64,000 nt of DNA from Thermodesulfobacteriota bacterium. Its GTDB lineage: Bacteria; Desulfobacterota_D; UBA1144; Nemesobacterales; Mycalebacteriaceae. Position 1 is the first letter of the stretch, and every line of letters starts with the position of its first letter. Shown here piece by piece: positions 4,820-62,485 of this stretch. Position numbers and translations under genes: made by a program. The notes beneath the pieces were generated by a model that had not been told where the DNA came from, did not search any database, and was given only the letters and a program-made list of their open reading frames with translations. Location: contig OZ245366.1 of NCBI GenBank assembly GCA_965226585.1, forward strand, positions 335,298 to 399,297. The letters are read 5' to 3'.

Positions 4820-6147
4820 TCCGGCATCTCCACAAGCACAATTCCAATGTCCATAACATTTGTTCCGGTGGATCCGGTTTTAATCAGATCGTCCAGAGAT
4901 TCGAAAAAAGTGTAAGAGTCGTTTTCCATCAGGTGGTTGCGTGCGCTTATGTCTCTCTTGCGCGCCAGCAGACGCGAAGCACCGTCGCATATCGCTCCCG
5001 CCGCGTCCGTGGGTCCGTCTATTCCGTCCGTTCCGGCAAACAAGCCCACTATGTTTTCGTGCCCGGCAACTTCCATACAAAATGACAGTGCGGTTTCCGT
5101 GTTCCTTCCGCCTCTTCCGCCGCGCTTCACGTTCACGGTTGTTTCGCCGCCGAAGATAACGCACGCAGGCGTCTCAAGCGGTTTTCCGAACCGCTCAACA
5201 TCAAGCGCGATTGCCGCAACACATTTCGCCACCTCTTTTGCCTCCCCCCTTATCTGCGATGACAGCACAAGGGTTGAGTATCCGAGGGCGCGCGCCTTTT
5301 CCTCAGCGGCGGAAACGCATTTGCTGTTGTTGCCAACCACTTCGGTTCGCACTTTCGCGCCGGGCGGAACGGTTTTTTCAAGGTTCGTTTCGTCTCTCAT
5401 ACCCCTTTCAAGCTCAACAACAACGCGGGGCGGAATCTGATGCTCAACGCCCAGCGCCTCAACCACGCGCCACGCCTCTTTGAAGGTGGTTGTGTCTTCA
5501 ACCGTGGGTCCCGAAGCTATCATTTCAAGGTTGTCTCCGACAACGTCTGAAAGGATTAACGTTACAACCTCTGACGGAAGCGCCTGCCGCAGAAGCCCGC
5601 CGCCCTTTATGCTGGACAGTTTTTTTCTGACTGTGTTCAGTCCGTAAGTGTCAACCCCGGAGATGAGGAGCTGTTCGGTAACTTTGCGCTTGTCTACAAG
5701 GGAAAGCCCTTCGCGGGGCTTGGCGAGCATTGAGCTTCCGCCGCCCGATATGAGAAACAGCACGAGGTCGTTTTTGCCGGTTTTCTCAAGCAGTTTCATA
5801 ATTTCGTCCGCCGCGCGCGCGCTTTTTTCATCGGGAACCGGGTGGCTTGAAAGCATGAATTTCATTACGGCAAAGTCAGAGGCGGGAGCGGAGTTTGAAA
5901 CCACAATCCCGTCCGTGATTCTGTCGCCGAGCAGTTTTTCCGCCGCCGCCGCCATCGCCGGGGCGGCTTTTCCGAACGAGACCACATAGATGCCTTTGTA
6001 TGAAGAAAGGTCGTAATTTTTTCCTTCCACTTTCAGGGTTTCGCCCTCAACTGATGCGTGCTCAAACACGCACCGCTCCGGATTGACCGCTTCAATTCCC
6101 GCGTCAAGAATCTCCATCGCGTGTTTTCTCAGGGTTTTGTTTGACAT
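4816..6147 (-). CDS. glycerate 2-kinase, MOFRL family
   Basis: 443 aa with the DUF4147/MOFRL architecture. Conserved GGGSSML and GTDGIDGPT motifs are present. Confidence 0.8.
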   Translation of the reverse strand: MSNKTLRKHAMEILDAGIEAVNPERCVFEHASVEGETLKVEGKNYDLSSYKGIYVVSFGKAAPAMAAAAEKLLGDRITDGIVVSNSAPASDFAVMKFMLSSHPVPDEKSARAADEIMKLLEKTGKNDLVLFLISGGGSSMLAKPREGLSLVDKRKVTEQLLISGVDTYGLNTVRKKLSSIKGGGLLRQALPSEVVTLILSDVVGDNLEMIASGPTVEDTTTFKEAWRVVEALGVEHQIPPRVVVELERGMRDETNLEKTVPPGAKVRTEVVGNNSKCVSAAEEKARALGYSTLVLSSQIRGEAKEVAKCVAAIALDVERFGKPLETPACVIFGGETTVNVKRGGRGGRNTETALSFCMEVAGHENIVGLFAGTDGIDGPTDAAGAICDGASRLLARKRDISARNHLMENDSYTFFESLDDLIKTGSTGTNVMDIGIVLVEMPE

Positions 6148-6156
6148 TTTCCGCTT

Positions 6157-6630
6157 TTAAGATTTTTTCAACTCTTCCAGAATTTTGTCCACCGATTCGC
6201 GGGTCAGGTTTTCGTGAAGCGAGTTGTCCACAAGCATAACCGGCGCAGAGCCGCACGCCGCGAGGCATTCGGCTTCCATAACCGTTATCTTGCCGTCTCC
6301 GGTCGTTTCACCCTTTGAGATACCCAGTTTGCCGCAAATGTGCTCCTCAACTTCGTCCGCCCCTTTGAGAGCGCACGACAGCGTTCCGCAAACCCAGACC
6401 GTGTGTCTGCCAACCGGTTTTGTGAAGAACATGGTGTAGAAAGTTGCCACATTCCGGACGCTTGCCGGGGTTATGTCCAGAATCTCCGCAACCTCGCTCA
6501 TGGATTCTTCAGCCAGCCAGCCCAGTTTCTGCTGGACTTTCCACAGAGCCGGAATCAAAGCCGCGCGCGTGTTTTCCGCTTCGCTTTTAATGCGCTCTAT
6601 TTCCGCTCTTGTGTCGTCAGGCAGTGGCAT
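6157..6630 (-). CDS. NuoE-like [2Fe-2S] thioredoxin-fold ferredoxin (NADH dehydrogenase 24 kDa subunit family)
   Basis: 157 aa with the four-Cys pattern VCGTLSC...C(x3)C of NuoE/HoxF-type 2Fe-2S domains. No other nuo genes are adjacent. Confidence 0.75.
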   Translation of the reverse strand: MPLPDDTRAEIERIKSEAENTRAALIPALWKVQQKLGWLAEESMSEVAEILDITPASVRNVATFYTMFFTKPVGRHTVWVCGTLSCALKGADEVEEHICGKLGISKGETTGDGKITVMEAECLAACGSAPVMLVDNSLHENLTRESVDKILEELKKS

Positions 6631-6641
6631 TTTGGTGAGCC

Positions 6642-7388
6642 TTACTTTACGTACTCAAACTGCGGGTATACAAAACTGCCCTTCATCCATACAGCCCATG
6701 TGGGGTCGGCAACCGGTTTGAGTTTGTTCAAGCGGTGACCGTCCGGAGCGGTGATTTCGATTTTCGCGTCTGTTATCGCTTTTGTGGAGCCGATGTATGG
6801 AATGGCGTATTTTACAAGTTTTCCGCCCTTTTTTCCGAAGTAGTTCAGGTGCCCGCCTTCGCGGTTTTCAAGTTTTCTGCCGGTAACCTTCGCTTCGGCT
6901 TTTATAAGAGTTTTGCCTCCCGCTTTCAGGCGCGCCTTCAGTTTGCCTTTTCTGACGCGCGCGGTGGTTTTTCCCTTCTCCGCCGGAATTCCGGCGCCAC
7001 GGGCGAACTTTCTCATCTTCTCCGAACTGTTGAAGTAGAAAACAAAATACCTGCCGGGATAGCCGTTTTTACTGTCCATCACGTAAGAGTCGCGCCCTTT
7101 CAGCTCAACCGTCAAATACGTTAGGGTATACGCTCCAAATCCCGAAGTCTGAGTGTCTTTCGGAACCGTGTACATGTTGATAACCACATGCCCGGTGGGT
7201 TCAAGCCCTTTCGGCAGCATCTTTTTCAGTTCTTTCTCATCCGCCTTGTAAGCCGCCATGAACATCCACGCGTCCTCAACAAGTTGAGGGGCGGGAAGCG
7301 GGTCGGGCGTTTTCGCGGCTCCGGCAACAGAAACCGGAATAACGACCGCAAGCAAAACGGCGGCAACAATCTTTTTCAGTTTTCTCAT
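6642..7388 (-). CDS. secreted hypothetical protein (signal peptide)
   Basis: The track ORF extends to 7577, but the probable start is the ATG near 7388 giving MRKLKKIVAAVLLAVVIPVSVAGAAKTP, a typical signal peptide. The remainder is Lys-rich. Confidence 0.55.
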   Translation of the reverse strand: MRKLKKIVAAVLLAVVIPVSVAGAAKTPDPLPAPQLVEDAWMFMAAYKADEKELKKMLPKGLEPTGHVVINMYTVPKDTQTSGFGAYTLTYLTVELKGRDSYVMDSKNGYPGRYFVFYFNSSEKMRKFARGAGIPAEKGKTTARVRKGKLKARLKAGGKTLIKAEAKVTGRKLENREGGHLNYFGKKGGKLVKYAIPYIGSTKAITDAKIEITAPDGHRLNKLKPVADPTWAVWMKGSFVYPQFEYVK

Positions 7389-8748: not shown

Positions 8749-11391
8749 ATGAAATCGACTGACAGAACGGAGGAGGAAACGGAGCGGCTCAAGAAGTTCT
8801 ATCTTGACGGCGCGCAGAAAATACGGGACAAGCATTTTTCCTTTACTCCGGAAAACAGGTTTGTTGCCGGAATGGAACTTGCGCGCGAGCGGACCGCCCT
8901 TGTTGACTCTTTTATCACAAAAGCCTCCGCAGACCGAAGCGGAAAATGCCCCGAAGGCGTTTCGCTTGTCGCCCTCGGCGGCTACGGCAGAAAAGACCTT
9001 TGCCCGTTTTCAGACATAGACCTTCTTGTTCTTCACAAGCCCGGGTTTGAGGAAGTCGCCCGCAAAACGGTTGAAAACATCTTCTATCCCATCTGGGACA
9101 TGAATCTTGACCTCGGTCACGCCGTCAGAACGGCTAATGAGTGCGCTCAAATGTGCGCCGGGGATTTTGTAACCTTCACCTCGCTTCTTGACAGCCGCTT
9201 CATCACCGGCGACCCGGCGGAGTTTGCCGCGCTCGCAAAGGGGCTTTCCGAAGACGTTATGCCGTCTGTCTCAGCGCGCTTTATTGATGAAAAACTCACT
9301 GAGGCGCGAATCCGCAGAAAGAAGTTCGGAAGTTCGGTCTGGATGCTTGAGCCCAACGTGAAAGAGGCGGAGGGCGCGCAGAGAGATTTGAACACAATGC
9401 TCTGGCTGTGTCAGGCGAAATACAAAATCAAAGCTTTTGATGAACTGCCGGACAAGGGGATTATGAGCGAAAAGGAGTTCAGAGTAACGTTCAAGTGCAT
9501 GAGTTTCCTCCTTCTCGTCCGCTCGCATCTTCACTACCTCGCGGGCAGAAAACACGACAAATTGAGTTTTGATTTTCAGCCCGATGTGGCGAAGTTTTTC
9601 GGGTATCAGGATTCTTCAAAGAAAGCGGTTGAAAAGTTTATGAGAATCTACTACCTGCGCGCCGGGCTTGTGAGCGAGAACTTTCAGCGTGTTGTGGAAA
9701 GGGTTTCGGAAAAATCCTCGTCTGCGGCAAAGCATTCCAAAATCCGCCATCTTGACCACGGGTTTACAATCAGCGACGGGGTTCTTTCCGTAACGGGAAA
9801 AAATGTTTTCAGGGAAACACCGGTAAATCTGATAAGGGCGTTTGAATACGCGGACAGGCACGGCGCGGAAATGAGCCGGTACATGAGGGCGCTTATCAGA
9901 GAGCACGTTCCGCTTATTGACGAAGAGGTGAGAAACAGCCCGGAGTTCAGCCGCATATTCACCGGTATTCTCAAAAACGGCTCAAACGTCTACAAGGTTC
10001 TCTCCCTCATGAACCGCCTGAGGTTTCTCGCCCACTACATACCGGAGTTCGGAAGAATTGTCTGCATGATGCAGCACAACGCCTACCACCTTTACACGGT
10101 GGATATTCACTCGCTTTTCCTTGTGAACGAGGTGGAGCGGCTTTTCAAATACGAGTACGAAGATGAGTTTCCCCTTCTGACGAAGGTCGCGGAATCGGTT
10201 GTCAGCAGAGACGTTCTGTATCTCGCGTGTCTGCTTCACGACATAGGCAAGGGTTCTGCCGGGCACGACCACGCGCGGGTGTCAAAGGAGATGGTTGAAA
10301 AAATCGGAGTGCGTCTCGGTCTCCCGCCGGATGATGCCGCCGTGCTTGAATTTCTTGTTGAAAACCACCAGATAATGTCGGATTTTTCACAGAAGCAGGA
10401 CATCAACGATTCGGAACTTGTCTCAAAGTTTGCCGAATCAGTCGGAGACGACGAACGGCTTTCCCTGCTCTACATACTCACTTTCGCGGACTTGAGGTCT
10501 GTCGGCACGGAGGTGTGGAACAACTGGAAATCCATGCTTCTCAGAAAACTGTATTTTTCCTCCCTCAGAAGTCTTGAACCCGGACGCCCCGGCCAGACCG
10601 AGGATGCGGACATGAGAAAGGAGACGGTGTGCAGGGAAGTAGAGCGCGCCTCTTCAGGCGAAATTACCGCTTCAGAAGCGGCTCGCGCCGTGGAAAATAT
10701 GCCTCTGTCATACCTGTTCAACCATTTGCCCGCCGACATTGGAAGGCACATCTCCATTATGAAATCCGCCCGCAACGGAATCGCGACCGATGTTATCCAC
10801 CACGAGGACGGGGGATATGACGAGTTTATTTTCTGGGGAAAAGACCGCAAAAGTTTGTTTCGCACCCTTTGCGGAGCCGTGAGCGCGAACGGTCTGAACA
10901 TCCTCGGGGCGAGAGCGGAAAGCGGCGCAGACGGCATGGCTCTGGACATCATGTATCTGAACCGGCTTGGCGGCTCGGCGGCGGACAGTCCGGAGTTGTG
11001 GGAAAAACTTGACGGCGACATCAGAGCCGCTCTGGGCGGCACGCTCGACATTGACGCTGTTATGAAAAAGCGCAAGCAGTTCTCTCCCGTGAAAAGGAAA
11101 CTCACCTCCACTCCTCCGAGGATTGTTTTTGACAACGAGTGGTCTGAAAAGGCGACTCTTGTGGAGGTGTTCGCAGACGACAAGCCGGGCATTCTCTACG
11201 ACATCGCGACCGTGCTTGCGGACGCAGGCGTTTCAATAACTCACGCCAAGGTGTCAACCAGAGCGGAGCAGGTTTTTGACGTTTTCTACGTTACCGGCGC
11301 GGACGGGCGCAAGGTGGAAAACCCCGATATTCTTGAGAAAATCAAAGAGGCGTTGCCGCGAGCCCTGGAACGGGATGCGGCGGATGTTTAG
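8749..11391 (+). CDS. glnD: [protein-PII] uridylyltransferase / uridylyl-removing enzyme
   Basis: 880 aa. A nucleotidyltransferase motif GGYGRKDLCPFSDIDLLVLH is followed by an HD domain (HDIGKG) and two C-terminal ACT domains. Confidence 0.9.
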   Translation: MKSTDRTEEETERLKKFYLDGAQKIRDKHFSFTPENRFVAGMELARERTALVDSFITKASADRSGKCPEGVSLVALGGYGRKDLCPFSDIDLLVLHKPGFEEVARKTVENIFYPIWDMNLDLGHAVRTANECAQMCAGDFVTFTSLLDSRFITGDPAEFAALAKGLSEDVMPSVSARFIDEKLTEARIRRKKFGSSVWMLEPNVKEAEGAQRDLNTMLWLCQAKYKIKAFDELPDKGIMSEKEFRVTFKCMSFLLLVRSHLHYLAGRKHDKLSFDFQPDVAKFFGYQDSSKKAVEKFMRIYYLRAGLVSENFQRVVERVSEKSSSAAKHSKIRHLDHGFTISDGVLSVTGKNVFRETPVNLIRAFEYADRHGAEMSRYMRALIREHVPLIDEEVRNSPEFSRIFTGILKNGSNVYKVLSLMNRLRFLAHYIPEFGRIVCMMQHNAYHLYTVDIHSLFLVNEVERLFKYEYEDEFPLLTKVAESVVSRDVLYLACLLHDIGKGSAGHDHARVSKEMVEKIGVRLGLPPDDAAVLEFLVENHQIMSDFSQKQDINDSELVSKFAESVGDDERLSLLYILTFADLRSVGTEVWNNWKSMLLRKLYFSSLRSLEPGRPGQTEDADMRKETVCREVERASSGEITASEAARAVENMPLSYLFNHLPADIGRHISIMKSARNGIATDVIHHEDGGYDEFIFWGKDRKSLFRTLCGAVSANGLNILGARAESGADGMALDIMYLNRLGGSAADSPELWEKLDGDIRAALGGTLDIDAVMKKRKQFSPVKRKLTSTPPRIVFDNEWSEKATLVEVFADDKPGILYDIATVLADAGVSITHAKVSTRAEQVFDVFYVTGADGRKVENPDILEKIKEALPRALERDAADV

Positions 11392-13967: not shown

Positions 13968-14927
13968 ATGACAGACACACTGAAAAACACCGCGCGGCGA
14001 ATTGACGAACTCAAGAGAGAGAAAAACGCCGTTATACTCGCGCACAACTACCAGGTGCCTGAAGTTCAGGACATTGCCGACTATGTGGGAGACTCTCTGG
14101 GGCTTTCCCGCAAGGCGGCGCAAACGGGGGCGGACGTTATCGTTTTCTGCGGCGTTCACTTTATGGCTGAGACCGCTAGCATAATTTCACCCGATAAAAA
14201 AGTTCTTATCCCCGACCCCCAAGCCGGCTGTTCGCTGGCAGACACCATCACCATTGAGCAACTCAAAGAGTGGAAAAATGAACACCCCGGCGCGGTTGTG
14301 GTTTCCTATGTCAACACCTCCGCCGCGGTCAAAAGCGAGAGCGACTACTGCGTTACATCTTCAAACGCCGTAAAGGTTGTGGAGTCAATCCCCGAAGACA
14401 GGAAAATACTTTTTCTGCCCGATATTTTTCTGGGCTCCTATGTGGCGAAACAAACAGGCAGAGAGATGGAGATATGGCCCGGCGAATGCCATGTTCATTC
14501 CGGCATCAAGGTTAAAGACATCAAAAACGTGAAAGCCCGCCACCCCGGCGCCGAAGTTGTTGTCCACCCCGAATGCGGATGCACAACCCACTATCTCTAC
14601 AACAGCGTTTCGGAAAAAGGCGAAGCCGTTCCGGGCGATGTGACATTTCTCTCAACTTCGGGCATGACAGAGCGCGCCCGCAAGGGCGGCGAAGAGTTTA
14701 TAGTTGCCACGGAAATGGGAATGCTTCACCGCCTCCGCAAGGATAATCCGGGCAAAAAGTTTTTTCCGGCAAGCGAAAGCGCCGTTTGCGAATATATGAA
14801 AATGATAACCCTTGACAAGGTTCTGCGCTCTCTTGAAGAGGAAATATACGAGGTGAAGGTTCCGCAACAACTGGCACTTCGCGCAAAGAAACCGATAGAC
14901 AGAATGCTTGGCGTTTCCGCCGCTTGA
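13968..14927 (+). CDS. nadA: quinolinate synthase
   Basis: 319 aa. ILAHNYQ...DYVGDSL and the conserved Cys-containing regions are typical of NadA. Confidence 0.95.
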   Translation: MTDTLKNTARRIDELKREKNAVILAHNYQVPEVQDIADYVGDSLGLSRKAAQTGADVIVFCGVHFMAETASIISPDKKVLIPDPQAGCSLADTITIEQLKEWKNEHPGAVVVSYVNTSAAVKSESDYCVTSSNAVKVVESIPEDRKILFLPDIFLGSYVAKQTGREMEIWPGECHVHSGIKVKDIKNVKARHPGAEVVVHPECGCTTHYLYNSVSEKGEAVPGDVTFLSTSGMTERARKGGEEFIVATEMGMLHRLRKDNPGKKFFPASESAVCEYMKMITLDKVLRSLEEEIYEVKVPQQLALRAKKPIDRMLGVSAA

Positions 14928-25696: not shown

Positions 25697-28600
25697 TCAT
25701 TCAAGTGGGTCACCCAAATCAAGCCTCAATCCCAAATAACGGACATCAAGTTTGTCCGCCTTGAACTGGTCAAAGGGATTTTCCAGTAGCGATATTCCGG
25801 TTTCATTTCCCCCCGCATTGAAAACCGTGCAAATCTGGTACTCGCCTAACTCCATTTGATTTTGACATCTACGGGCGTGTTCCCACTGTGGACCTGTAAT
25901 TTCGAAGGTGTGAGGGGGGCTACTTATTGTTGTCTTGACCTCTACGAAGATATCCAAATTGCCTTTTCTGCTGATGCTTATGTCATAGGGCTTACTGCTT
26001 TCCCCTGCTTCATTCATCCAGACTACCTCATCTTCCAGATATTTCTTTTGTAGTGCGAGAAGAACTTCTTCTTCTCCCCATCTTCCGGCTTCCAGATTTG
26101 GCTTTGTAGGTCTGCTGTTATTACTATCCTCTCTTGTGGAATTGTTCTGACGAGGGGAAGAGGTTCTTGGCGACAGTGTAGGCGTTACGGCGCGGTATAT
26201 TTTCGATGAACCATTCGGCTCGCGTTCGGGTTTCCATGGTTCTTCTGCAAAATTGTTGGGTTCCCCCGGTGTTCTGACCCCGCTTCTTTCATAGTTGCTT
26301 GAGCGCGGTTGTTTTAGTTGTTTCAGTTCTGCTTTCAATTCTTCATTCTCTTGCTTTAACTGTGTGTTTTCCTCCGCTTTTTCTTGGTACTCTTTGCGAG
26401 TAACAACTTCCGGTCTCATTCCCAGAGCGCGAGCTAATGTGTCTCGGGCTATTGGGGTTCCTTTCTCATACATTTCGTTCAAATCTTCAAATCCGTAATT
26501 TCCCAGAGATTCTATTTGTATCAGTTCGTTTTTTTTATCGTAGAGCCAGTTGTGTTTTTGTATAGTCTGTCCGGCTTCTGAGAACATCTCACACGTATTT
26601 TTGTTGGAAAAATTCTTTTGAGAACTACAAGATACTTTTCCCCTTAAATGGTCATAATATTTCAAGAGGAAACTCCACAAAATCTTTGAACGGCCCTCAT
26701 TGATATTTTCGAGAGAGTATTGAAGCCCGTAGATTTTGAAGTTAGGCTTAAAACCGTCTTCGCCTTTTTTATGGGGATTATCGGGAGTTCCGTGACGTAC
26801 TGTTTTCTTCCACTCTTCGCCATCCCATTCCCACTTTCCATCGTCATATTCCAAATCTTTAAAGCATCCGATTTTTACAAACATTTCTTTTATTTCTTTA
26901 TTGTTTTTCTCTGTCCATTTCAACTCTTTGACAGGTTCTATCTCTTTATTGTCTTTGAACCATTTTGTAGTTATCTCATCCTGCAGGAAAGTTTTGTCCG
27001 GTTTGCTATAGATTCCTGTTTCCGTGCGAATAATATAGAGGTTTTTTAATGACTTTGTGATGTCACTATCATTTTTGTAGCCTGCTATACGAGCAATGTT
27101 TTTGAGGTGATATTCTTCATTTATTTGGTGGTTTTCGTTTTCGTATTTGGGCAGTATGTCTTTTTGTATCCAGTCTTTTTCATCAGGTTCTTTGATTCCT
27201 AGGTATTCAAACAGTTTTTTGGCGTTTTCTTGCTTCAAAATTTCTTTGTCAATTATTTTGAAGGATGAGGACTCACTGTTGGATTCGTACGGTCTGAAAA
27301 CCTGTAGGTTTCCTTTAGAATCAAACGGAGACACGTAGTCTCCATTCTGTAGGCGTAAGATAGGTTTTTCTTTGAACAAGTCAATTATTTCACGATACCT
27401 CCCGTAAAATTTAGGTTTTAATTCACTTTCTTTTTCTTCTATAAAAATACCGTAAAAGTTATTTAGCCACTTATCATCTTTTTTACTGATGAATTCTTTA
27501 TCTAATTTCTCTGCAAACTTTTCTAACGAGAATTCTTCTATTGAGAGGATTTGGCGAATGTTATCTGGAATGTCCGTGGAGACCCATTTATACATGACAT
27601 CTTTTATTTCGTGTGGTTTAAGAAGTTTGGTTAGTTCCTTGTCTTTAGTAAACAAACATTCTTTCGGGTGAAGATATGTGTTTACTTCAACACCCGGAAG
27701 CAGTTTTTCTTGTTTCATTTTCTCTGTCACGGCCTCGCGTACGGTAGAGTATGGTTCTTCTCCATTTCTTTCGTTCACGGGCAGAAATCTTAAGACATCG
27801 GTTGATAGCAAACCTATATCTCTTATCAATGGCAGAGAATCGGCAACGAGTCTTCCCAAGCTCTTTGTAATTTCTTGGTTGTCTTCGTCATCAAGGCAGA
27901 GATTCTCTCTGCTGGGAGTTGTTCCGTAGGGTGCTTGAACAAGAAAAGGGAGATAACTTTCCGTGCTTGTCGGAAAAAAAACAAATACTGGGCTCTCGGC
28001 AACGCTAACCAGATTTCTTTTTTCTTTGAGTAAAGCGATTTTAATTTTATGGCTGGTTTTCCTGACTGATTTTATTGGCTCTATTACAAGATAGTGTTGG
28101 TCACCACCATCTCCGACAGTTGTTTCAGTAACTTTGAAATCTTTTTTGTATTTCTGCGGAATTTTTAGTGATTTTCTCTTTATGTGTAGATTCCATTTCT
28201 TGTCCTTATAGGAGAAAGTTATTCTTTGTATGTTTTTGAGGAAAAGGAGATTTTCACTTTTTGTTTCTTCAAATCCTTTGATTATAGTTTGTTTGATGTT
28301 CTGAGATTCATCGTTTTTGAGGCGAAGAATAAAAAGTGTTTCTTTTCCAATGTCTTTGGGTTTAACTTCTTCTGGAAGTATATAGTCCTCAATTTTGAAG
28401 TGGTATTTCCCCGAATGAATAATCGGAGAATCTGTAATGTTAAAAACTGACTTGAAGCCAACCCCGAACTTTCCTATGTCGTTTTTTCCTTCTTTATCTG
28501 AGTCACCAAAGTTAGTTATTGAATCAACATTGTTATAAGTAAAAACTTTTTTGCCATCGTGTCTTATCAGCAATTCTTTGTCTGACAAATCAAAGTGTAC

Positions 28601-28798
28601 GAACTTTGCTTCCTTATCTTCGGCATTTTGAAGAAATTCAAAAATGAACTGTGTTTTCTTAGAATGTTGTTCCGCAAGGAGTTTATGCGAGCGGTCTTTG
28701 CGTTTTTTCATCAGCTTGTGGTATTCGAGTATTTCCTCGCGAAGTTTGGCCAATCCGGGGTTGATATCTGCTTTATCCATATCAGTTTCTCTCCTCAT
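25697..28798 (-). CDS. large two-domain protein: N-terminal sacsin/MORC-type GHKL (HATPase) domain, coiled-coil and S/P-rich linker, C-terminal DUF3883 (restriction-endonuclease-like) domain; candidate defense ATPase-nuclease
   Basis: 1033-aa ORF in a markedly AT-rich stretch. N-terminus FIFEFLQNAEDKEAKFVHF...GKFGVGFKSVF is the Bergerat-fold sacsin-like ATP lid. C-terminus GEEEVLLALQKKYLEDEVVWMNE...PYDISI...DIFVEVKTT...YQICTVFNAG matches DUF3883. A coiled coil (TQLKQENEELKAELKQLKQ) and a Ser/Pro/Thr-rich linker lie between them. Confidence 0.75.
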   Translation of the reverse strand: MRRETDMDKADINPGLAKLREEILEYHKLMKKRKDRSHKLLAEQHSKKTQFIFEFLQNAEDKEAKFVHFDLSDKELLIRHDGKKVFTYNNVDSITNFGDSDKEGKNDIGKFGVGFKSVFNITDSPIIHSGKYHFKIEDYILPEEVKPKDIGKETLFILRLKNDESQNIKQTIIKGFEETKSENLLFLKNIQRITFSYKDKKWNLHIKRKSLKIPQKYKKDFKVTETTVGDGGDQHYLVIEPIKSVRKTSHKIKIALLKEKRNLVSVAESPVFVFFPTSTESYLPFLVQAPYGTTPSRENLCLDDEDNQEITKSLGRLVADSLPLIRDIGLLSTDVLRFLPVNERNGEEPYSTVREAVTEKMKQEKLLPGVEVNTYLHPKECLFTKDKELTKLLKPHEIKDVMYKWVSTDIPDNIRQILSIEEFSLEKFAEKLDKEFISKKDDKWLNNFYGIFIEEKESELKPKFYGRYREIIDLFKEKPILRLQNGDYVSPFDSKGNLQVFRPYESNSESSSFKIIDKEILKQENAKKLFEYLGIKEPDEKDWIQKDILPKYENENHQINEEYHLKNIARIAGYKNDSDITKSLKNLYIIRTETGIYSKPDKTFLQDEITTKWFKDNKEIEPVKELKWTEKNNKEIKEMFVKIGCFKDLEYDDGKWEWDGEEWKKTVRHGTPDNPHKKGEDGFKPNFKIYGLQYSLENINEGRSKILWSFLLKYYDHLRGKVSCSSQKNFSNKNTCEMFSEAGQTIQKHNWLYDKKNELIQIESLGNYGFEDLNEMYEKGTPIARDTLARALGMRPEVVTRKEYQEKAEENTQLKQENEELKAELKQLKQPRSSNYERSGVRTPGEPNNFAEEPWKPEREPNGSSKIYRAVTPTLSPRTSSPRQNNSTREDSNNSRPTKPNLEAGRWGEEEVLLALQKKYLEDEVVWMNEAGESSKPYDISISRKGNLDIFVEVKTTISSPPHTFEITGPQWEHARRCQNQMELGEYQICTVFNAGGNETGISLLENPFDQFKADKLDVRYLGLRLDLGDPLE

Positions 28799-33199: not shown

Positions 33200-33994
33200 A
33201 TGGCAAAGAATCTGAACCCTTGGATAGAGATGAGTATTGAATACGCGAACCAGCGTAGTTACTTGGATGATTTGTTCACCGTTTATCCGACAATACCGGA
33301 TGGTATTCGTGAAATAGATGAGGAAGTTCGGGAAAGTGTGGAAAAATCGTTTGAAAAGCAGGACAACATTTCGCTTATTGAAAACTTGCTCAAACTTGAA
33401 CTTTTTCCGGTCAAGGACTCGTATGTAGCGTACCTCAGGAGAGACAAAGAATCCTTGAGACGCAATCCTGCCACCGTAGACAGGCTTGCCGGTCGCATTT
33501 ATGATTTGGGGCTGGAGGAAGTTTTGTCTCGCTCTTCCGAGCCGAAAGAAACCAACAGGCAAATAGGCCCGCTTTTCAAACGCTGGATTAGTGGAAAGTC
33601 TCTCGGTGTGAAGCCAGTGAAGTTGGATAAGTTTTTGGAAACAAAAAGAAACGCTGTTCTTGATGCAAGTGATGAAGAGATGAAAGAATTTGCTTGGAAA
33701 AATCTGAATTACAAGCATGACAAAGGGCTCGATTTTGTCGGGCGTTTTAACGGCAAATACGTTATTGGAGAAGCAAAATTCCTAACTGATTTTGGAGGAC
33801 ATCAGAACGCTCAATTCAATGATGCTGTAGCTACTGTAACAGCGCGTGGAGTGAAAGCAGTTCAGGTCGCAATTCTTGACGGTGTCCTATACATTGAAAG
33901 CAGAAGTAAATTGCATAAGGAAATTACCGGACGGCTTAGAAACAAAAATATAATGAGTGCATTGGTTTTTCGGGAGTTTCTGTATCAGGTCTAA
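33200..33994 (+). CDS. putative type II restriction endonuclease (PD-(D/E)XK-like)
   Basis: 264 aa, AT-rich. It carries a D...(E)AK-type motif (GLDFVGRF...VIGEAKF) and overlaps the downstream DNA methyltransferase start by 1 nt (TAATG). Confidence 0.5.
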   Translation: MAKNLNPWIEMSIEYANQRSYLDDLFTVYPTIPDGIREIDEEVRESVEKSFEKQDNISLIENLLKLELFPVKDSYVAYLRRDKESLRRNPATVDRLAGRIYDLGLEEVLSRSSEPKETNRQIGPLFKRWISGKSLGVKPVKLDKFLETKRNAVLDASDEEMKEFAWKNLNYKHDKGLDFVGRFNGKYVIGEAKFLTDFGGHQNAQFNDAVATVTARGVKAVQVAILDGVLYIESRSKLHKEITGRLRNKNIMSALVFREFLYQV

Positions 33995-35124
33995 TGCCAA
34001 TGTTCATTACTTATGAAAACAAGAAGTCTGAGAAAGATATTCTCGACAAAACTTCTGGCGTAGGTCTGGATGTTGTTTCCGGGCAAGGGGCGGCAAACAA
34101 GCTTATTCACGCAGACAACCTTCCAACTCTTAAAACTCTACTTGCCGATTATGCTGGGAAAATTGATTTGATTTACATTGACCCCCCATTTGCCACGAAC
34201 GGACATTTCAAAATCAGCAAAGACAGGGCGAATACGGTCAGCTGTTGCAATGGTGATGAAGTGGCGTACAGCGATACCCTTTTAGGAGTGGATTTTCTGG
34301 AATTTTTGCGTGAAAGGCTGGTACTGTTGCGCGAACTCTTATCCGAACACGGGTCAATTTATCTGCACATTGACTACAAGATAGGGCATTACGTCAAGTT
34401 GATAATGGATGAGATATTTGGAATCGGTACGTTCCGGAACGATATTACCAGAGTTAAGTGTAATCCGAAGAATTTTAACCGTAAAGCGTATGGAAACATT
34501 AAGGATTTGATACTTTTTTATTCAAAATCTCCTACTCCGAAATGGAATGACCCGCGTATTCCTTTTTCAAAAGAGGATGAGGAACGCTTGTTCAAAAAAA
34601 CAGATGATAACGGGCGGAAATATACGACAATACCGCTTCACGCGCCTGGAGAAACTTCAAGCGGTAAGACGAGCGAGGAGTGGAAAGGTATGAAGCCGCC
34701 TAGGGGAAGGCATTGGCGTACCGACCCGGCGATACTTGAGAAATGGGACAATCAGGGATTGGTTGAGTGGTCGGTAAACGGAGTTCCACGTAAGAAAATC
34801 TTTCTTGATGAGAGGAGAGGTAAGAAAATGCAAGACATTTGGGAATTCAAGGACCCGCAGTATCCGCAGTACCCAACGGAGAAAAGTTTGAATCTTTTGA
34901 AATTTATTATTGAAGCGTCATCAAACGAAGGAGATTTGGTACTGGATTGTTTTGCGGGTTCGGGAACGACTCTTGTCGCAGCACAATCTCTGAACCGTCA
35001 TTGGATAGGAATTGACGAGTCTGAATCGGCGATTAAAGTTATCAAAGAGAGAATAAACGATTTGCCTGCCACTCTTTTTTCACTTGTTGAATATGAGTTT
35101 TTGAGAACAGTACAAATGCCATAG
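33994..35124 (+). CDS. DNA methyltransferase, beta-class N6-adenine/N4-cytosine type (motif IV DPPF preceding motif I FAGSGTT)
   Basis: 376 aa, AT-rich. IYIDPPF catalytic motif lies N-terminal to the LDCFAGSGTTLVAA SAM-binding motif, which is the circular permutation typical of beta-group amino-MTases. Confidence 0.8.
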   Translation: MPMFITYENKKSEKDILDKTSGVGLDVVSGQGAANKLIHADNLPTLKTLLADYAGKIDLIYIDPPFATNGHFKISKDRANTVSCCNGDEVAYSDTLLGVDFLEFLRERLVLLRELLSEHGSIYLHIDYKIGHYVKLIMDEIFGIGTFRNDITRVKCNPKNFNRKAYGNIKDLILFYSKSPTPKWNDPRIPFSKEDEERLFKKTDDNGRKYTTIPLHAPGETSSGKTSEEWKGMKPPRGRHWRTDPAILEKWDNQGLVEWSVNGVPRKKIFLDERRGKKMQDIWEFKDPQYPQYPTEKSLNLLKFIIEASSNEGDLVLDCFAGSGTTLVAAQSLNRHWIGIDESESAIKVIKERINDLPATLFSLVEYEFLRTVQMP

Positions 35125-35149
35125 TATTCGACCTGATGACCAAGAAAAA

Positions 35150-35178
35150 TTGACACTTTTCAGGCAGTTAGGTATAGA
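35150..35178 (+). promoter_or_regulatory. sigma70-like promoter (TTGACA-17nt-TATAGA) upstream of the Panacea-domain gene
   Basis: ttgacacttttcaggcagttaggtatagaat lies about 55 nt upstream of the ATG at 35230. Confidence 0.35.
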
Positions 35179-35229
35179 ATGTGAGGTAGCGATTGAACTT
35201 ATTGTAAGTATGAAAATAGGGGGGTTGCA

Positions 35230-35760
35230 ATGCCGAAATCAACAAAAAAGCTAACCGAACTTCTCTTGTATGTTGCGTCTAAATCTGAAGGAGACGGGAG
35301 TTTTGGAATGACTAAACTCAACAAATTGATGTTTTTTTCAGATTTTTCTCACTACAAAAAGACTGGAAGATCTATTACAGACACCACTTATGTAAGAAAC
35401 CATCGGGGACCCACCATTAAGGATTTACATTTGGTATTGAATGAAATGGAGAGTAATCGTGTTTCTGCGATTAAAGAGACAGATTTTCACGGCTATCCAC
35501 AGAAGCGTCTAATTGCACTGAGACGCGCTGACATATCACAGTTTACGGTTGATGAGATAGACACGGTAGGGAGTGTTCTATCACTTCTGAAGGGTCATAA
35601 TGCGTCAGAAGTTAGTGAAGCATCCCACGAATTCGTAGGGTGGAGATTTGCCCGTCAGGGTGAGGAAATCCCTTACATGACTATTAATATATGTAGTCCT
35701 GAACAGGTTGCTGAATCAATGTCAGATGAAGAGTTAAGGCAAGCAAGTGAGTACGACTGA
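35230..35760 (+). CDS. Panacea-domain (DUF4065, SocA/GepA-like) antitoxin candidate
   Basis: 176 aa. The N-terminus LTELLLYVASKS...MTKLNKLMFFSDFSHYKKTGRSITDTTYVRNHRGP matches the Panacea/DUF4065 signature. RBS gggggg upstream. AT-rich. Confidence 0.7.
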   Translation: MPKSTKKLTELLLYVASKSEGDGSFGMTKLNKLMFFSDFSHYKKTGRSITDTTYVRNHRGPTIKDLHLVLNEMESNRVSAIKETDFHGYPQKRLIALRRADISQFTVDEIDTVGSVLSLLKGHNASEVSEASHEFVGWRFARQGEEIPYMTINICSPEQVAESMSDEELRQASEYD

Positions 35761-47802: not shown

Positions 47803-48432
47803 TTGCAGGACAGTGTTATGTTGGTAGATAGTCTGGCAGAGAAGATACACGCCTTTTGGTTCGGTGAAATCGGTGAAAACGGCCTTTGCGATGCCGAAAA
47901 GTCGTCTGCGTGGTTCGAAAAAGACGACTGTTTCGACCGCCTCATGGAGCGTGAATTCGGGAATTTTCTGTCTTCCGTCCACAGCGGCGCTCTTGACGGC
48001 ATGGATCAGACACCTCGCGGGGCGCTTTCCCTTATAGTTCTAACCGACCAGTTTCCGCGAAACATACACCGCGGACGCCCGGAATCCTTCGCTTTTGATT
48101 CATTTGCGCTTGCTGTCTGCAGAAAAGGGATTGGCAAGGGTTTTGACAGTTTGCTTGCGCCTCCGGAGAGAGTTTTCTTCTACCTTCCGCTTATGCACTC
48201 GGAGAGTTTTGCGATACAGAAAATATCAGTAAAAACCTTTACATCTCTGGCGGAGGATTTCAGGGAAATTCCTGAAGTTTTTAAAACACTTAATTACTCC
48301 GTGGATTTTGCGCGCCGCCATTTTGACATTATTGAGCAGTTCGGCAGATACCCGCACAGAAATAAAATACTCGGCAGAGAGTCCACACCTGAGGAAATAG
48401 AGTTTCTTAAACAGCCGGGGAGTTCGTTTTAG
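47803..48432 (+). CDS. DUF924-family protein
   Basis: 209 aa. FWFG...QFPRN...HRNKILGRESTPEE segments are typical of DUF924. Confidence 0.75.
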   Translation: MQDSVMLVDSLAEKIHAFWFGEIGENGLCDAEKSSAWFEKDDCFDRLMEREFGNFLSSVHSGALDGMDQTPRGALSLIVLTDQFPRNIHRGRPESFAFDSFALAVCRKGIGKGFDSLLAPPERVFFYLPLMHSESFAIQKISVKTFTSLAEDFREIPEVFKTLNYSVDFARRHFDIIEQFGRYPHRNKILGRESTPEEIEFLKQPGSSF

Positions 48433-48444
48433 TATGAACCTTGC

Positions 48445-49179
48445 TTATTTCTTTTCATACTGTTCAACAAAATACGCAGGTCTTTTTTTGCCTCTGTATG
48501 AAGGGTGAGGACCAACATAAACAGTTCTTTTATTTGTCGATACAAAACTCAATATCTCTTCTTTGCGGTTAAATTCAAGGCTTTGAAAAATAATTATGTC
48601 TGGGTTGAAAATGTTGACTTCTTTAATAAAAAACTCTTGTTCAATGTCTTTTTTGTAATGCTTTCTGTTTTTCCCTCCTGATTTGTAATTTCTGCCTACG
48701 TCAACGAACTTGTAGAAATTTGTCAGGGATATATGGGAAAGAGGATTTTCTTCCGGCAGGCAATCCTTTTTGTTTTTCAATATTTGCTGACAGGTATGTG
48801 TTTTCCCTATTTCATTCCACTTGTTTCCCCAATTCAGATTTTTTTCCAGAAAGTGTAGGGCGGTGAAATAAGTTCCGGCAATGTGCGGGTTGAGGAGATG
48901 AAACTCTTTTTTCTCAATGCTTGAATTTCTCCCGTTAAAATCCTGTATATGTTCTTTCTCATCTTTTCCCTTATCGAGTCCTACAAAAAGAATTGCGGGT
49001 GAATACTTCCCGTAATTTGAACCGATGTACGGATAAGTGGGGAACCTAACTTTCTTACACTTGCGAGTATTTTGATGTGATTCTGTTTTGAGAATCCCCG
49101 TTTTCGGGTCTATTTCCATATCACGGAAAAATTTTCCGTGCGTTTCTTTCAATTCTCTTTTTAATCTGCCGTTGGACAC
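48445..49179 (-). CDS. low-GC hypothetical protein (possible divergent UDG-superfamily fold; speculative)
   Basis: 244-aa Lys/Asn-rich ORF in an AT-rich stretch. Segments AILFVGLDKG and VGPHPSYRG are faintly reminiscent of UDG motif A and motif B (HPS). No confident family. Confidence 0.5.
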   Translation of the reverse strand: MSNGRLKRELKETHGKFFRDMEIDPKTGILKTESHQNTRKCKKVRFPTYPYIGSNYGKYSPAILFVGLDKGKDEKEHIQDFNGRNSSIEKKEFHLLNPHIAGTYFTALHFLEKNLNWGNKWNEIGKTHTCQQILKNKKDCLPEENPLSHISLTNFYKFVDVGRNYKSGGKNRKHYKKDIEQEFFIKEVNIFNPDIIIFQSLEFNRKEEILSFVSTNKRTVYVGPHPSYRGKKRPAYFVEQYEKK

Positions 49180-49209
49180 GGGCGTTATTTTAATTCACAA
49201 TTCCATCAA

Positions 49210-49623
49210 ATGAAAACCCTTGCTCTTGATGTTGGAACAAAAACCATTGGTGTTGCCGCAAGTGATGAACTCGGCATAACATCAAACGGGATTGGAGTAA
49301 TAAAACGCAAAGACGAAAAAAGCGATTTGGAATCCCTCGCGATTCTAATTGAAGAACACAAACCCGGCCGCATAGTTGTGGGTATTCCCTTTAACGCAGA
49401 CGGCTCTCTGGGCGAGCGAGCGGTTCGCATAAAACAGTTTTCAGAAAAACTGAGAGATTTTTCCGGAGTGGAAACAGCGCTGTGGGATGAAAGTTTTTCC
49501 ACCGTCAGCGCGGAAAAAACCCTCATCGGCGGCGGAATGGGACGGAAAAAAAGGAAGAAAGTTGTTGATAAACTGGCGGCGGTTGTTATCCTGCGCGAAT
49601 ATCTTGACAGCAGGGGAAGTTAA
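49210..49623 (+). CDS. ruvX: Holliday junction resolvase-like protein YqgF/RuvX
   Basis: 137 aa. LALDVGTKTIGVAASD and VVGIPFN motifs of the RuvX/YqgF RNase H-like fold are present. Confidence 0.9.
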   Translation: MKTLALDVGTKTIGVAASDELGITSNGIGVIKRKDEKSDLESLAILIEEHKPGRIVVGIPFNADGSLGERAVRIKQFSEKLRDFSGVETALWDESFSTVSAEKTLIGGGMGRKKRKKVVDKLAAVVILREYLDSRGS

Positions 49624-55893: not shown

Positions 55894-56625
55894 ATGGACA
55901 AAGTGACGTTTAAGCAGTTTCGCAGTTTTATTCAGTTTTTTGATGGAGAGGAATTAGAAACACCTGTTCAAAAAAAACCTTTTAGAGTTGATGTTGCAGA
56001 AACATATATTTCTTTTACTCCTGAAGTCAGTGGGGAATCAAGAAGTGTTTATTATAAAAATGACATTATAGGGAGCGAAGGAAAAAAGGGTTATTTAGCA
56101 TTTTATAATGAAGGTTGCAGACAAGGCAAGGATTTCCCTCGTAAAAATTATATGGATGTTTCATATTTTATTGCTGTTATGAAAGAATATGAAAAACCTC
56201 AAAATCGTATTTTTCATAAGAGTGAAAATCACAAAAAAACTGAAACACAGTCTCTTGCAATGGCAAGGGTGGGACAAGGTGAATTCAGGAATCAACTTTT
56301 AGCGTATTGGGAGAGTTCCTGTTCAGTTACCGGAGTTAATGATAAAAATTTGTTGCGTGCTTCTCATATCAAACCTTGGAGAGACTCTCAAAACAATGAA
56401 CGGTTGGACAAGTTCAATGGCTTGCTGTTGAATCCAAATCTGGATTTGTTGTTTGACAAAGGATTTATAACTTTTGATGGTAATGGCAAAATTCACATTT
56501 CTAAGCAAATATCAAAAAAGAATCTAGATAGATTAGGCGTTAAGGATTCTATGTCTTTAAGAAGGATTGATGGTGGGCACAAGCATTTCCTCGATTATCA
56601 TAGAGAGAAGGTTTTTCAAAAGTAA
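55894..56625 (+). CDS. HNH endonuclease (HNH_2/PF13391-like C-terminal domain) with unknown N-terminal domain
   Basis: 243 aa, AT-rich. The C-terminus RVGQGEFRNQLLAYWESSCSVTG...LLRASHIKPW...NGLLLNPNLDLLFDKGFITF matches the HNH_2 signature. The gene starts 2 nt after the cobQ stop, and its stop overlaps the cobW ATG. Confidence 0.7.
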   Translation: MDKVTFKQFRSFIQFFDGEELETPVQKKPFRVDVAETYISFTPEVSGESRSVYYKNDIIGSEGKKGYLAFYNEGCRQGKDFPRKNYMDVSYFIAVMKEYEKPQNRIFHKSENHKKTETQSLAMARVGQGEFRNQLLAYWESSCSVTGVNDKNLLRASHIKPWRDSQNNERLDKFNGLLLNPNLDLLFDKGFITFDGNGKIHISKQISKKNLDRLGVKDSMSLRRIDGGHKHFLDYHREKVFQK

Positions 56626-57674
56626 TGCAAACAACACGAAAAATACCCATAACGGTGATAACCGGTTTTCTTGGAGCCGGAAAAACAACCATTGTTCGCA
56701 ACCTTCTCTCGCAGACGGGCGGACGGCGTATAACCGTGATTGTCAACGAGTTTGGAGACATCGGAATAGACGGCGAAATAATCAGGGATTCATGCGGTTG
56801 TGAAGAAGGCGAAATTGTTGAACTGAGCAACGGATGCCTCTGCTGTACGGTTCAGGAGGAATTTCTGCCCACAATGACAAAACTTGTTGAGAGAAAAAAC
56901 GATATTGATCACATCGTGATTGAAACCTCAGGGCTCGCTCTGCCAAAACCCCTTGTCCGTGCCGTTAACTGGCCCGGGCTGAAACCGCATTTTTCCGTTG
57001 ATTCCGTTGTGGCGGTTGTTGATGCGGACGGAATGGCGACCGGGGAAATATGCGACAGAAAAAAAATTCAGTCTCAGCGCGAGGCAGACGACTCCCTTGA
57101 CCACGAAACGCCGATTGAAGAATTGTTTTCAGACCAAGTTTCATGCGCGGATATGGTTGTTTTGAATAAATCCGACCTTGTGGGCGAACAAAAACTGGAT
57201 GAAATTGAAAACCTTTTGAGAGATGAAATGAAAGAGGGCGCGGCGGTTGCGCGGGCGCGGATGGGAAATATTTCCCCCGAAATTCTGCTCGGAATAGGAG
57301 CCGCCGCCGAAGATGACCTTGATCCAAGACGTTCCCATCACGAAGACCATCACGAAAACGGGGGCGACCACGAGCACGACGAGGATATTGATTCCGTTGT
57401 TGTGGAAATTAAATCAGACGTTTCACCTGAAGCCCTTATGAGCGCGCTGAAAAAAACAGCCCGCGAGCATGAGATTTACAGAGTGAAAGGATTTATGAAG
57501 GTTTCGGGCAAGCGGATGAGAATGCTTGTTCAGGGAGTGGGAGAGAGATTTGAGGGGTATTTTGACAGACTCTGGAGAGAGGATGAAACCGCGAGAACCC
57601 GTCTGGTTTTTATCGGAAAAAATCTGTCCCTTCTGAATCTCGGCGAAATTGTGGAAAAAAACCTTTCCCGATAA
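56625..57674 (+). CDS. cobW: CobW/COG0523-family G3E GTPase (metallochaperone)
   Basis: Walker A ITGFLGAGKTT, CxCC metal-binding motif (GCLCC) and a His/Asp-rich stretch HHEDHHENGGDHEHDEDID. Confidence 0.85.
   Translation: MQTTRKIPITVITGFLGAGKTTIVRNLLSQTGGRRITVIVNEFGDIGIDGEIIRDSCGCEEGEIVELSNGCLCCTVQEEFLPTMTKLVERKNDIDHIVIETSGLALPKPLVRAVNWPGLKPHFSVDSVVAVVDADGMATGEICDRKKIQSQREADDSLDHETPIEELFSDQVSCADMVVLNKSDLVGEQKLDEIENLLRDEMKEGAAVARARMGNISPEILLGIGAAAEDDLDPRRSHHEDHHENGGDHEHDEDIDSVVVEIKSDVSPEALMSALKKTAREHEIYRVKGFMKVSGKRMRMLVQGVGERFEGYFDRLWREDETARTRLVFIGKNLSLLNLGEIVEKNLSR

Positions 57675-62401: not shown

Positions 62402-62485
<84 letters not shown>

Follow-up and report, generated by a model that had tools for sequence, protein, structure and literature searches.

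In the window, by which we mean the whole 64,000-nucleotide stretch of Thermodesulfobacteriota DNA that was analysed, a gene has been inserted on the opposite strand between the DUF924 gene and ruvX, and the best explanation of it is that it was horizontally acquired and probably encodes a functional DNA-binding enzyme of the UDG superfamily. Judging from its conserved residues, the protein is likely to act as a monofunctional glycosylase on uracil or 5-substituted uracil. Neither the fold nor the overall chemistry of such proteins is new, and Pfam flags this protein; what is new is the motif set of the family, its occurrence among uncultured bacteria and DPANN archaea and a possible role in immunity.

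A low-GC gene on the opposite strand between DUF924 and ruvX

The gene, its two neighbours and the spacers that separate them are arranged as follows.

47803 to 48432, plus strand: DUF924 gene (Pfam E 1e-62), a conserved flank of the insertion slot
48433 to 48444, no strand: 12-nt spacer to the DUF924 stop codon, right edge of the insertion slot
48445 to 49179, minus strand: UDG-superfamily-like coding sequence of 244 aa, with a GTG start at 49179 and its stop codon at 48445-48447
49180 to 49209, no strand: spacer of 30 nt between divergent genes, reaching to the ruvX start and forming the left edge of the insertion slot
49210 to 49623, plus strand: ruvX gene (Pfam E 2e-41), a conserved flank of the insertion slot

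The spacer to ruvX has the length given in the original prediction, whereas the one to DUF924 had been counted as 13 nt and measures 12. The base composition of the ORF sets it apart, as had been noticed from the letters: its GC content is 0.366 versus a mean of 0.515 for the window, which ranks it in the lowest 2.1% of all segments of 735 nt, and its GC3 is 0.38. The protein is correspondingly described as rich in Lys and Asn, and indeed contains 13.5% Lys and 7.8% Asn as compared with 4.8-10% and 1.5-3.9%, respectively, in its neighbours; its net charge is +16. The translation contains both motifs that had been picked out by eye, AILFVGLDKG (residues 62-71) and VGPHPSYRG (residues 222-230).

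The database gene call (P0001) is 224 aa long and begins at an internal ATG, residue 21. Given that an N-terminal helix of about 20 residues is kept in the homologues and is modelled with confidence, this call is probably 20 codons short and the GTG at 49179 is to be preferred as the start. A scan for promoters and terminators found no convincing promoter or Shine-Dalgarno signal for the ORF, the scores being no better than in shuffled sequence. One promoter-like match on the minus strand (49216-49187) overlaps the ruvX spacer with 9 of 12 positions matching; since shuffled sequence scores as well, we do not take the site as evidence of function. The locus in the window was also searched for signatures of mobile elements; apart from two weak inverted repeats nothing came up, neither direct repeats nor a nearby tRNA. 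The ORF is nevertheless a real gene and not a chance reading frame, as indicated by the existence of clusters of homologues and by a confident AlphaFold2 model.

The protein is a divergent member of the UDG superfamily

The Pfam UDG profile (PF03167) matches residues 56-242 over profile positions 3-138 of 141 with 26.8 bits (E 6e-6), a score that lies only 2.5 bits above the cut-off of 24.3 bits. An AlphaFold2 model built from the family alignment (pLDDT 89, pTM 0.89) predicts an alpha/beta fold built around a central parallel sheet, which can be superposed on solved UDGs, and Foldseek comparison of the model with the PDB returned SMUG1, TDG, UdgX and family-4 UDG as top matches, all of them weak (E about 3e-3, TM 0.38-0.46). 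The unrelated fold that the original prediction had named as grounds for its refutation did not emerge from modelling. Along the chain, motif 1 is placed after beta1 and motif 2 after beta4, collinear with the order in known UDGs, as far as the alignment tells.

Profile comparisons point in the same direction. Family-4 and UdgX sequences were taken from the PDB and then aligned, and hhalign of a 142-sequence profile of the present family with the family-4 UDGs gave an alignment of 184 columns (E 1.2e-4, probability 56%) in which motifs 1, 3 and 2 are in register; obtaining this full-length alignment required the larger family profile and greedy settings, and its residue register is indicative, not proof. 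With default local settings and an alignment of four family-4 sequences, hhalign matched 21 columns only, in the beta3 region. An HMM made from the same number of family-4 sequences picked this ORF alone among the 290 ORFs of the window (E 6e-4). Searching all PDB chains with the protein and with a 33-sequence profile yielded no match even at E 10, and the NCBIfam search of the protein gave no match either.

Together, sequence profiles and the structural model make membership of the UDG superfamily well supported. Of the two options that had been considered, a diverged DNA-glycosylase fold and something entirely new, the first is borne out by PF03167, AlphaFold2 and Foldseek, and the second holds only in that the protein falls outside every characterised family tested. 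The family is a previously uncharacterised, very divergent branch within the superfamily, Brig2 having been compared by description only. Its distance from each characterised UDG family is as large as the distances of those families from one another.

Conserved motifs and a putative active site

Four conserved segments can be recognised in the protein.

48961 to 48981, minus strand: equivalent of motif 1 (motif A), G67-L-D69-K-G71-K-D73, directly after beta1 (residues 63-67)
48868 to 48891, minus strand: family signature N97-P-H99-I-A-G-T-Y104 at the start of the helix 98-111, invariant in 33 sequences
48703 to 48726, minus strand: equivalent of motif 3, L152-T-N154-F-Y-K157-F-V159, on strand beta2
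48490 to 48513, minus strand: equivalent of motif 2 (motif B), G223-P-H225-P-S-Y-R-G230, after strand beta4

In the 142-member alignment, the motif 1 residues G67, D69, G71 and D73 are found in 130, 127, 134 and 131 members, respectively; the consensus reads G-L-D-[IVML]-G, with Leu at position 68 in 104 of the 142. Conservation is higher still in the signature of helix 98-111 (H99 and G102, 139/142 each) and in motif 3 (N154, 141/142; K157, 136/142), and is similar in motif 2 (H225, 135/142; P226, 137/142). Outside these segments, E187 (140/142) and Q199 (139/142) are nearly invariant, and P193 is also part of the family signature.

The roles that we assign to residues derive from alignment and not from superposed coordinates. 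By hhalign, G67, D69 and G71 fall on G40, G42 and G44 of the T. thermophilus (Tth) family-4 enzyme UDGa, A101-G102 on the helix cap A58-G59, N154 and K157 on N80 and K83, and H225-P on H155-P, with the strand 'PDIIIFQ' on 'PQIIVPL'. Family 1 has its water-activating Asp as the third residue of motif 1 and family 2 has Asn at this position, whereas families 4-6 lack the catalytic side chain there (PMC5387724). In families 1 and 4, the His of motif 2 stabilises uracilate as the leaving group, and by the numbering used there Tth N80 corresponds to N123 of E. coli UNG, the Asn that recognises uracil (PMC5387724). Read through the alignment, D69 sits at the catalytic position of UNG. This differs from the original prediction, according to which motif A lacked its catalytic acid: the acid is there as the third residue of G-L-D-x-G. 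The candidates for base stacking are H99 and F81. In the hhalign alignment F81 is paired with Tth F54, while comparison of the P-H-I-A-G and P-F-V-G-x-A-G patterns would put H99 there.

In the mechanism that we propose, the basic protein (net +16) would bind DNA and, in the manner of UNG, flip a pyrimidine out of the DNA into its pocket, where H99 or F81 would stack on the flipped base. N154 would read the N3-H/O4 face, which would select a uracil- or thymine-type base and not cytosine; H225 would stabilise the departing base through O2; and D69 would activate water, so that the N-glycosidic bond is cleaved and an abasic site is left.

An improbable alternative is that the UDG fold here serves a non-hydrolytic protein, either a UdgX-like sensor or cross-linker of damage or uracil, or one with a selfish or mobile function such as counter-defence or the processing of DNA modifications. 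The UdgX loop KRRIH, which carries the cross-linking His109, has no counterpart in the alignment, with no equivalent insert after beta2, and the conservation of both the water-activating Asp and the leaving-group His points to turnover chemistry; as to a selfish or mobile function, no copies are found on sequenced plasmids or phages.

Comparison with characterised UDG families

The protein is 13-14% identical to family-4 UDGs (UDGa of T. thermophilus, 1UI0; T. maritima, 1L9G; S. tokodaii, 4ZBX). Motif 1 of family 4 reads GE[AG][VP]G (PMC5387724), unlike the G-L-D-[IV]-G found here, and the motif Pro of family 4 is supplied by neither position 70 nor position 98. Nor are there counterparts of the four Cys that hold the family-4 [4Fe-4S] cluster (Tth C13, C16, C84 and C100); across the 142-member alignment, Cys is present in more than 30% of members at one column only (C130, 45%). 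Relative to family 4, the protein also has two large inserts, residues 72-97 and 112-146. Its putative catalytic residues follow instead the Asp/Asn/His logic of family 1, as in D64, N123 and H187 of E. coli UNG (PMC5387724), while the GQDPY and HPSPLS motifs of family 1 are not found. As read from the alignment, the family thus combines a UNG-like Asp/Asn/His set with a family-4-like scaffold that has no Fe-S cluster.

SMUG1/SMUG2 and TDG/MUG (families 3 and 2), which include top Foldseek matches, share with the present family a Gly at the fifth position of motif 1; they carry Asn in motif 1 where this family has Asp, and are 10-14% identical to the protein, with TM-scores of 0.3-0.45 only. 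A fifth-position Gly in families 3 and 2 goes with acceptance of 5-substituted pyrimidines. Given that G71 replaces the thymine-excluding Tyr of UNG and L68 the pocket-tightening Glu of family 4, the predicted pocket may accept 5-substituted uracils.

Insertion, decay and absence at the DUF924-ruvX slot

Two metagenome contigs (L005 and L007) carry the gene in the same slot and in the same orientation. In the GTDB Thermodesulfobacteriota MAG OZ242184.1 (L041; 1.40 Mb) the copy is a pseudogene, broken by several frameshifts and stops, with a nucleotide identity of 82% to the L005 gene. In the closest relative of the window (L042, WLWD01000050.1; 83.4% identity over concatenated RNR, hydrolase, RuvX and DUF924), homology to the window ends at the DUF924 stop codon, and we found no trace of the gene in the AT-rich spacer of 289 bp that separates DUF924 from ruvX, a finding compatible with loss of the gene or with its never having been gained. 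The gene is likewise absent from four more distant relatives of about 62% identity (L043, L049, L054 and L071), in which the DUF924-ruvX spacers are about 190 bp. The absence in L042 and the pseudogene in L041 are at odds with a family inherited vertically and present at this locus in all relatives, an outcome that had been held out as speaking against the original prediction. Given the spacers without the gene in L042 and in the more distant relatives, the ancestral arrangement is DUF924 followed directly by ruvX; the gene is an opposite-strand insertion, and among the descendants some have since retained it, while in others it has decayed or been lost.

DUF924 is 65-70% identical in L005, L007, L041 and L042, and ruvX is 71-81% identical in the relatives. 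The syntenic UDG-like proteins are 46-58% identical to one another, and the flanking proteins about 82%. The GC content of the gene is 0.36-0.39 in all syntenic genomes, as compared with 0.49-0.58 in the flanks. In a neighbour-joining tree, the copies of the window and of L005 group together with 65% bootstrap and all syntenic copies with 23%, and the closest match of the L007 copy is a non-syntenic protein (60%); the tree is compatible with a single insertion or with repeated replacement at the slot. Whichever of these took place, the gene was horizontally acquired and is accessory in one clade of small-genome Thermodesulfobacteriota.

The decay seen in L041 bears on whether the copy in the window could itself be a decaying or non-functional foreign remnant, an AT-rich ORF kept by chance. 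Such a remnant would be in line with that pseudogene, with the other degenerate copies of the family described below and with the failure of the scan to reveal a convincing promoter or Shine-Dalgarno signal. The copy in the window, however, runs uninterrupted for 244 codons, keeps every family-invariant residue intact and folds confidently; it is 58% identical to its L005 orthologue with no disruption of the frame while the flanks are about 82% identical, a pattern that fits purifying selection on the catalytic core. We therefore regard a remnant as very improbable and proceed with a functional gene.

A rare family with a patchy distribution across domains

The original prediction had called the gene an orphan. 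This no longer applies: in a word-indexed search, 33 clusters (formed at 90% identity) proved homologous to the protein and 37-58% identical to it, and scanning 1.84 billion representatives with an HMM brought up 283 clusters, formed at 50% identity, with E<=1e-3, 124 of them with E<=1e-30. Among genomes taken one per species, the family is present in 34 of 185,579. The 34 loci belong to Longimicrobiales and Palauibacter (Gemmatimonadota), Bacteroidales, Flavobacteriales, Gammaproteobacteria, Patescibacteria, Latescibacterota, Nanoarchaeota and Woesearchaeota, and include the Thermodesulfobacteriota pseudogene. For some of the contigs, the presence of archaeal PolD genes near the homologue supports a host that is truly archaeal. 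All hosts are uncultured bacteria or DPANN archaea, and several of the host genomes are reduced in size. One Nanoarchaeota copy and one Patescibacteria copy are 81% identical, 5 of the 34 genome copies are degenerate, and in 40 of 41 loci the GC content of the gene is below that of its flanks, with an average deficit of 7 points.

Searches of IMG/VR, of the INPHARED phages and of the PLSDB plasmids found no relatives, and a BFVD search returned distant UDG-like folds only. An origin from phages or plasmids is on these searches unsupported.

Neighbourhoods of the homologues and the possible role of the gene

All-against-all clustering of 1,045 neighbouring ORFs from 37 loci revealed no conserved operon partner, recurrence being seen only among closely related Palauibacter genomes. 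Pfam and PADLOC scans assigned 139 Pfam families to the 144 nearest-neighbour proteins, none of them in more than 2 of 30 loci, or 2-3 loci over both scans. With no recurrent partner gene, a multi-gene system was rejected, and the gene is taken as a stand-alone unit. Individual homologues have a type I HsdR as neighbour, lie between a Type ISP protein and two transposases, reside inside a conjugative element with a T4SS, a DruE-like DEAD/MZB helicase and ParE, or adjoin PDDEXK_4, NucS_C and PIN genes; some are beside Uma2 nucleases, and type III restriction-modification is also among the neighbours. Other homologues lie among metabolic or replication genes such as those for a 5'-3' exonuclease, PolD and DnaB. 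By raw counts, defence or mobile neighbours are found at a minority of loci and most neighbours are housekeeping genes. For the protein of the window itself, PADLOC-DB 2.0, which dates from 2023 and predates Brig1-3, gave no matching family at E up to 10.

DNA glycosylases have reportedly been recognised of late as single-protein anti-phage effectors, in the Brig1, Brig2, Brig3 and Dag families. To our knowledge, few anti-phage glycosylase families have been characterised, all of them from cultivable or library-derived bacteria. By analogy with these, the role that we consider most likely, and put forward tentatively, is a Brig-like innate defence in which the enzyme would excise uracil, 5-hydroxymethyluracil or hypermodified thymine from phage DNA. 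The likeness to Brig1 and Brig2 consists in a single AT-rich gene of patchy distribution, in transfer between domains, in frequent decay and in occasional restriction-modification or mobile neighbours.

The likeness to Brig1 is not one of descent that can be seen in the sequence: hhalign gave a probability of 0.2% and E 0.28 over 35 columns only, with a Brig1 sequence that was machine-read from a supplement PDF and may contain small errors, and relatedness was rejected. Brig1 is an anti-phage glycosylase for alpha-glucosyl-hmC that has the motif GLNPG and reads the cytosine derivative with a Glu (E147) at the place of N154 (PMC11078745); the present family has in contrast an Asn of the uracil/thymine type and an Asp in motif 1. 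Homologues of Brig1 are mostly actinobacterial and are located in defence islands (PMC11078745). Brig2 is described as a UDG-like glycosylase that protects against phages and whose substrates are modified thymidines (bioRxiv 10.1101/2025.10.29.685425). By this description, it resembles the present family in being a single-gene UDG fold located in AT-rich regions and patchy across phyla, in a list of homologues that includes Gemmatimonadota and Thermodesulfobacteriota, and in its substrate class, since a 5-substituted uracil is what the conserved Asn would predict here. The homologues of Brig2 are mainly from Pseudomonadota and Bacillota, unlike those of the present family. Brig3 has an AAG-like fold and not a UDG fold, and was set aside as irrelevant.

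Against a defence role count the empty PADLOC search, the lack of similarity to Brig1, the mostly housekeeping neighbours with no conserved partner and the absence of copies from the phage and plasmid collections searched; the Asp/Asn/His triad, moreover, is equally expected of a plain uracil repair enzyme. The protein could be an ordinary base-excision-repair glycosylase for uracil or for oxidised or deaminated pyrimidines that was taken up by streamlined genomes, among them those of small Thermodesulfobacteriota, CPR bacteria and DPANN archaea, in place of a lost housekeeping UDG and has no part in immunity; we consider this the main alternative, if on balance doubtful. The completeness of the UNG-type set is in keeping with repair, as are the housekeeping placement beside ruvX, the many homologues among metabolic and replication genes, the absence of matches in PADLOC and the reduced genomes of several hosts. 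For a needed repair enzyme, however, it is atypical that the family is so rare and patchy and has so many degenerate copies (the 34 species and 5 of 34 copies given above), that equally close relatives of the same genome style lack the gene or have it as a pseudogene, that its GC content is consistently below that of the host, that copies in different domains are 81% identical and that the gene diverges faster than the genes beside it. A sporadic distribution is, however, also reported for UdgX (PMC10776899). Roles other than defence or repair are unlikely.

Taking up the Brig-like defence again, the fuller proposal is of a new family that acts as a one-gene anti-phage module, excises uracil or 5-substituted uracil and was recently exchanged among DPANN archaea, CPR bacteria, sponge-associated Gemmatimonadota and small-genome Thermodesulfobacteriota; this we advance with reserve, as a possibility. 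If true, glycosylase-based immunity would extend to uncultured lineages and to archaea, and a defence enzyme of this kind would represent a new specificity class and imply that glycosylase immunity circulates among lineages with ultra-small genomes. If the protein is instead a repair enzyme, it would add a UDG family with an unusual motif set to the six families and UdgX, and this set could help to explain how catalytic residues have migrated within the superfamily. In either case a soluble-looking protein of 244 aa with clear point mutants would be a cheap and well-defined target for biochemistry.

Three other low-GC islands were observed in the window, and their content, like the defence or mobile neighbours of some homologues, counts in favour of a defence role. 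One encodes a Tsp45I-type restriction enzyme with its N6/N4 methylase and a SocA/Panacea protein, another a 1033-aa Sacsin-HATPase/NOV_C protein, and the third an HNH_2 nuclease. Given that all three encode defence or selfish functions, low GC in this genome marks acquired cargo of the defence type.

Start codon of the glycosylase gene

The start region of the predicted glycosylase gene offers two candidate initiation codons:

49119-49179: start region of the glycosylase gene, with GTG at 49179 versus an internal ATG at residue 21

The public gene call (P0001) begins at the internal ATG and gives a protein of 224 aa. Initiation at the GTG adds an N-terminal helix, which is conserved, as seen in the homologues and in the AlphaFold2 model of the 244-aa protein. 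Together, the homologues and the model support GTG as the probable start codon over the annotated ATG.

The DUF924-ruvX slot in relatives

Exploring the slot between DUF924 and ruvX in the closest relative by neighbouring genes (L042), we found that the glycosylase gene is absent and that the slot (5298-5586) is filled by an unrelated spacer of 289 bp (GC 0.32), carrying a 55-codon ORF with a hydrophobic N-terminus (MKKYISTLIFALFFCVF...). Insertions may land repeatedly in the DUF924-ruvX slot. The conserved block has received one more small accessory insertion in L007, a metagenome contig with the glycosylase gene in the same slot, namely a HicA-toxin-like gene pair flanked by the ribonucleotide reductase gene and atpC (14115-14689) and missing from the window.

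A further match to the slot was found on contig L128, where a 1-kb segment (5832-6829) is 93% identical in nucleotide sequence to the slot of L005. The segment holds the glycosylase gene together with ~125 nt of a truncated ruvX 5' end and ~115 nt of the DUF924 3' end, and is surrounded by a Type ISP protein, a Y1 transposase and a DDE transposase, on a contig that differs from L005. Both contigs come from the same metagenome sample. Either the slot was transposed, or the segment is an assembly chimera at ~3x coverage.

Variants of the family

Some high-GC family members (Palauibacter/Longimicrobiales type) carry a C-terminal extension of ~120 aa, as in P0030 (357 aa), and in some the N-terminus may be longer by ~190 aa, the L029 locus having an open frame of 424 aa.

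P0030 / P0033 (L126, 8001-9074): extended high-GC family members
L029, L030 and L033, ~9450-10735: high-GC family members, possibly extended

The L034 copy (10001-11017), from a Pseudomonadales MAG, consists of two pieces in the same frame, ~320 bp apart, and is either an interrupted pseudogene or a pseudogene with an insertion.

One pair of family members spans two domains:

L008, 10001-10699: Nanoarchaeota MAG
L009, 10001-10699: Patescibacteria MAG

Because the two copies share 81% identity over 227 residues, their sequences imply either a recent transfer across domains or mis-binning.

Other genes in the window

The sole RNA gene detected across the 64-kb window was a tRNA:

62402-62485 (-): tRNA-Leu(CAG)

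A low-GC island (33200-35760; GC 0.41-0.44) encodes a restriction-modification pair and an antitoxin-domain protein:

33200-33994: Tsp45I-type type II restriction enzyme (Pfam E 3e-118)
33994-35124: N6/N4 DNA methylase
35230-35760: SocA/Panacea antitoxin-domain protein, after the methylase gene

Two additional features have low GC:

25697-28798 (-): Sacsin-like HATPase + NOV_C protein, 1033 aa, low-GC island (0.37-0.41)
55894-56625 (+): HNH_2 endonuclease gene, GC 0.39

The 1033-aa protein carries its Sacsin-like HATPase domain at the N-terminus and NOV_C (DUF3883) at the C-terminus, an architecture frequent in defence islands. The HNH_2 gene lies immediately upstream of cobW (56625-57674), which it abuts, and looks like a further small acquired insertion, within a housekeeping (cobalamin) cluster.
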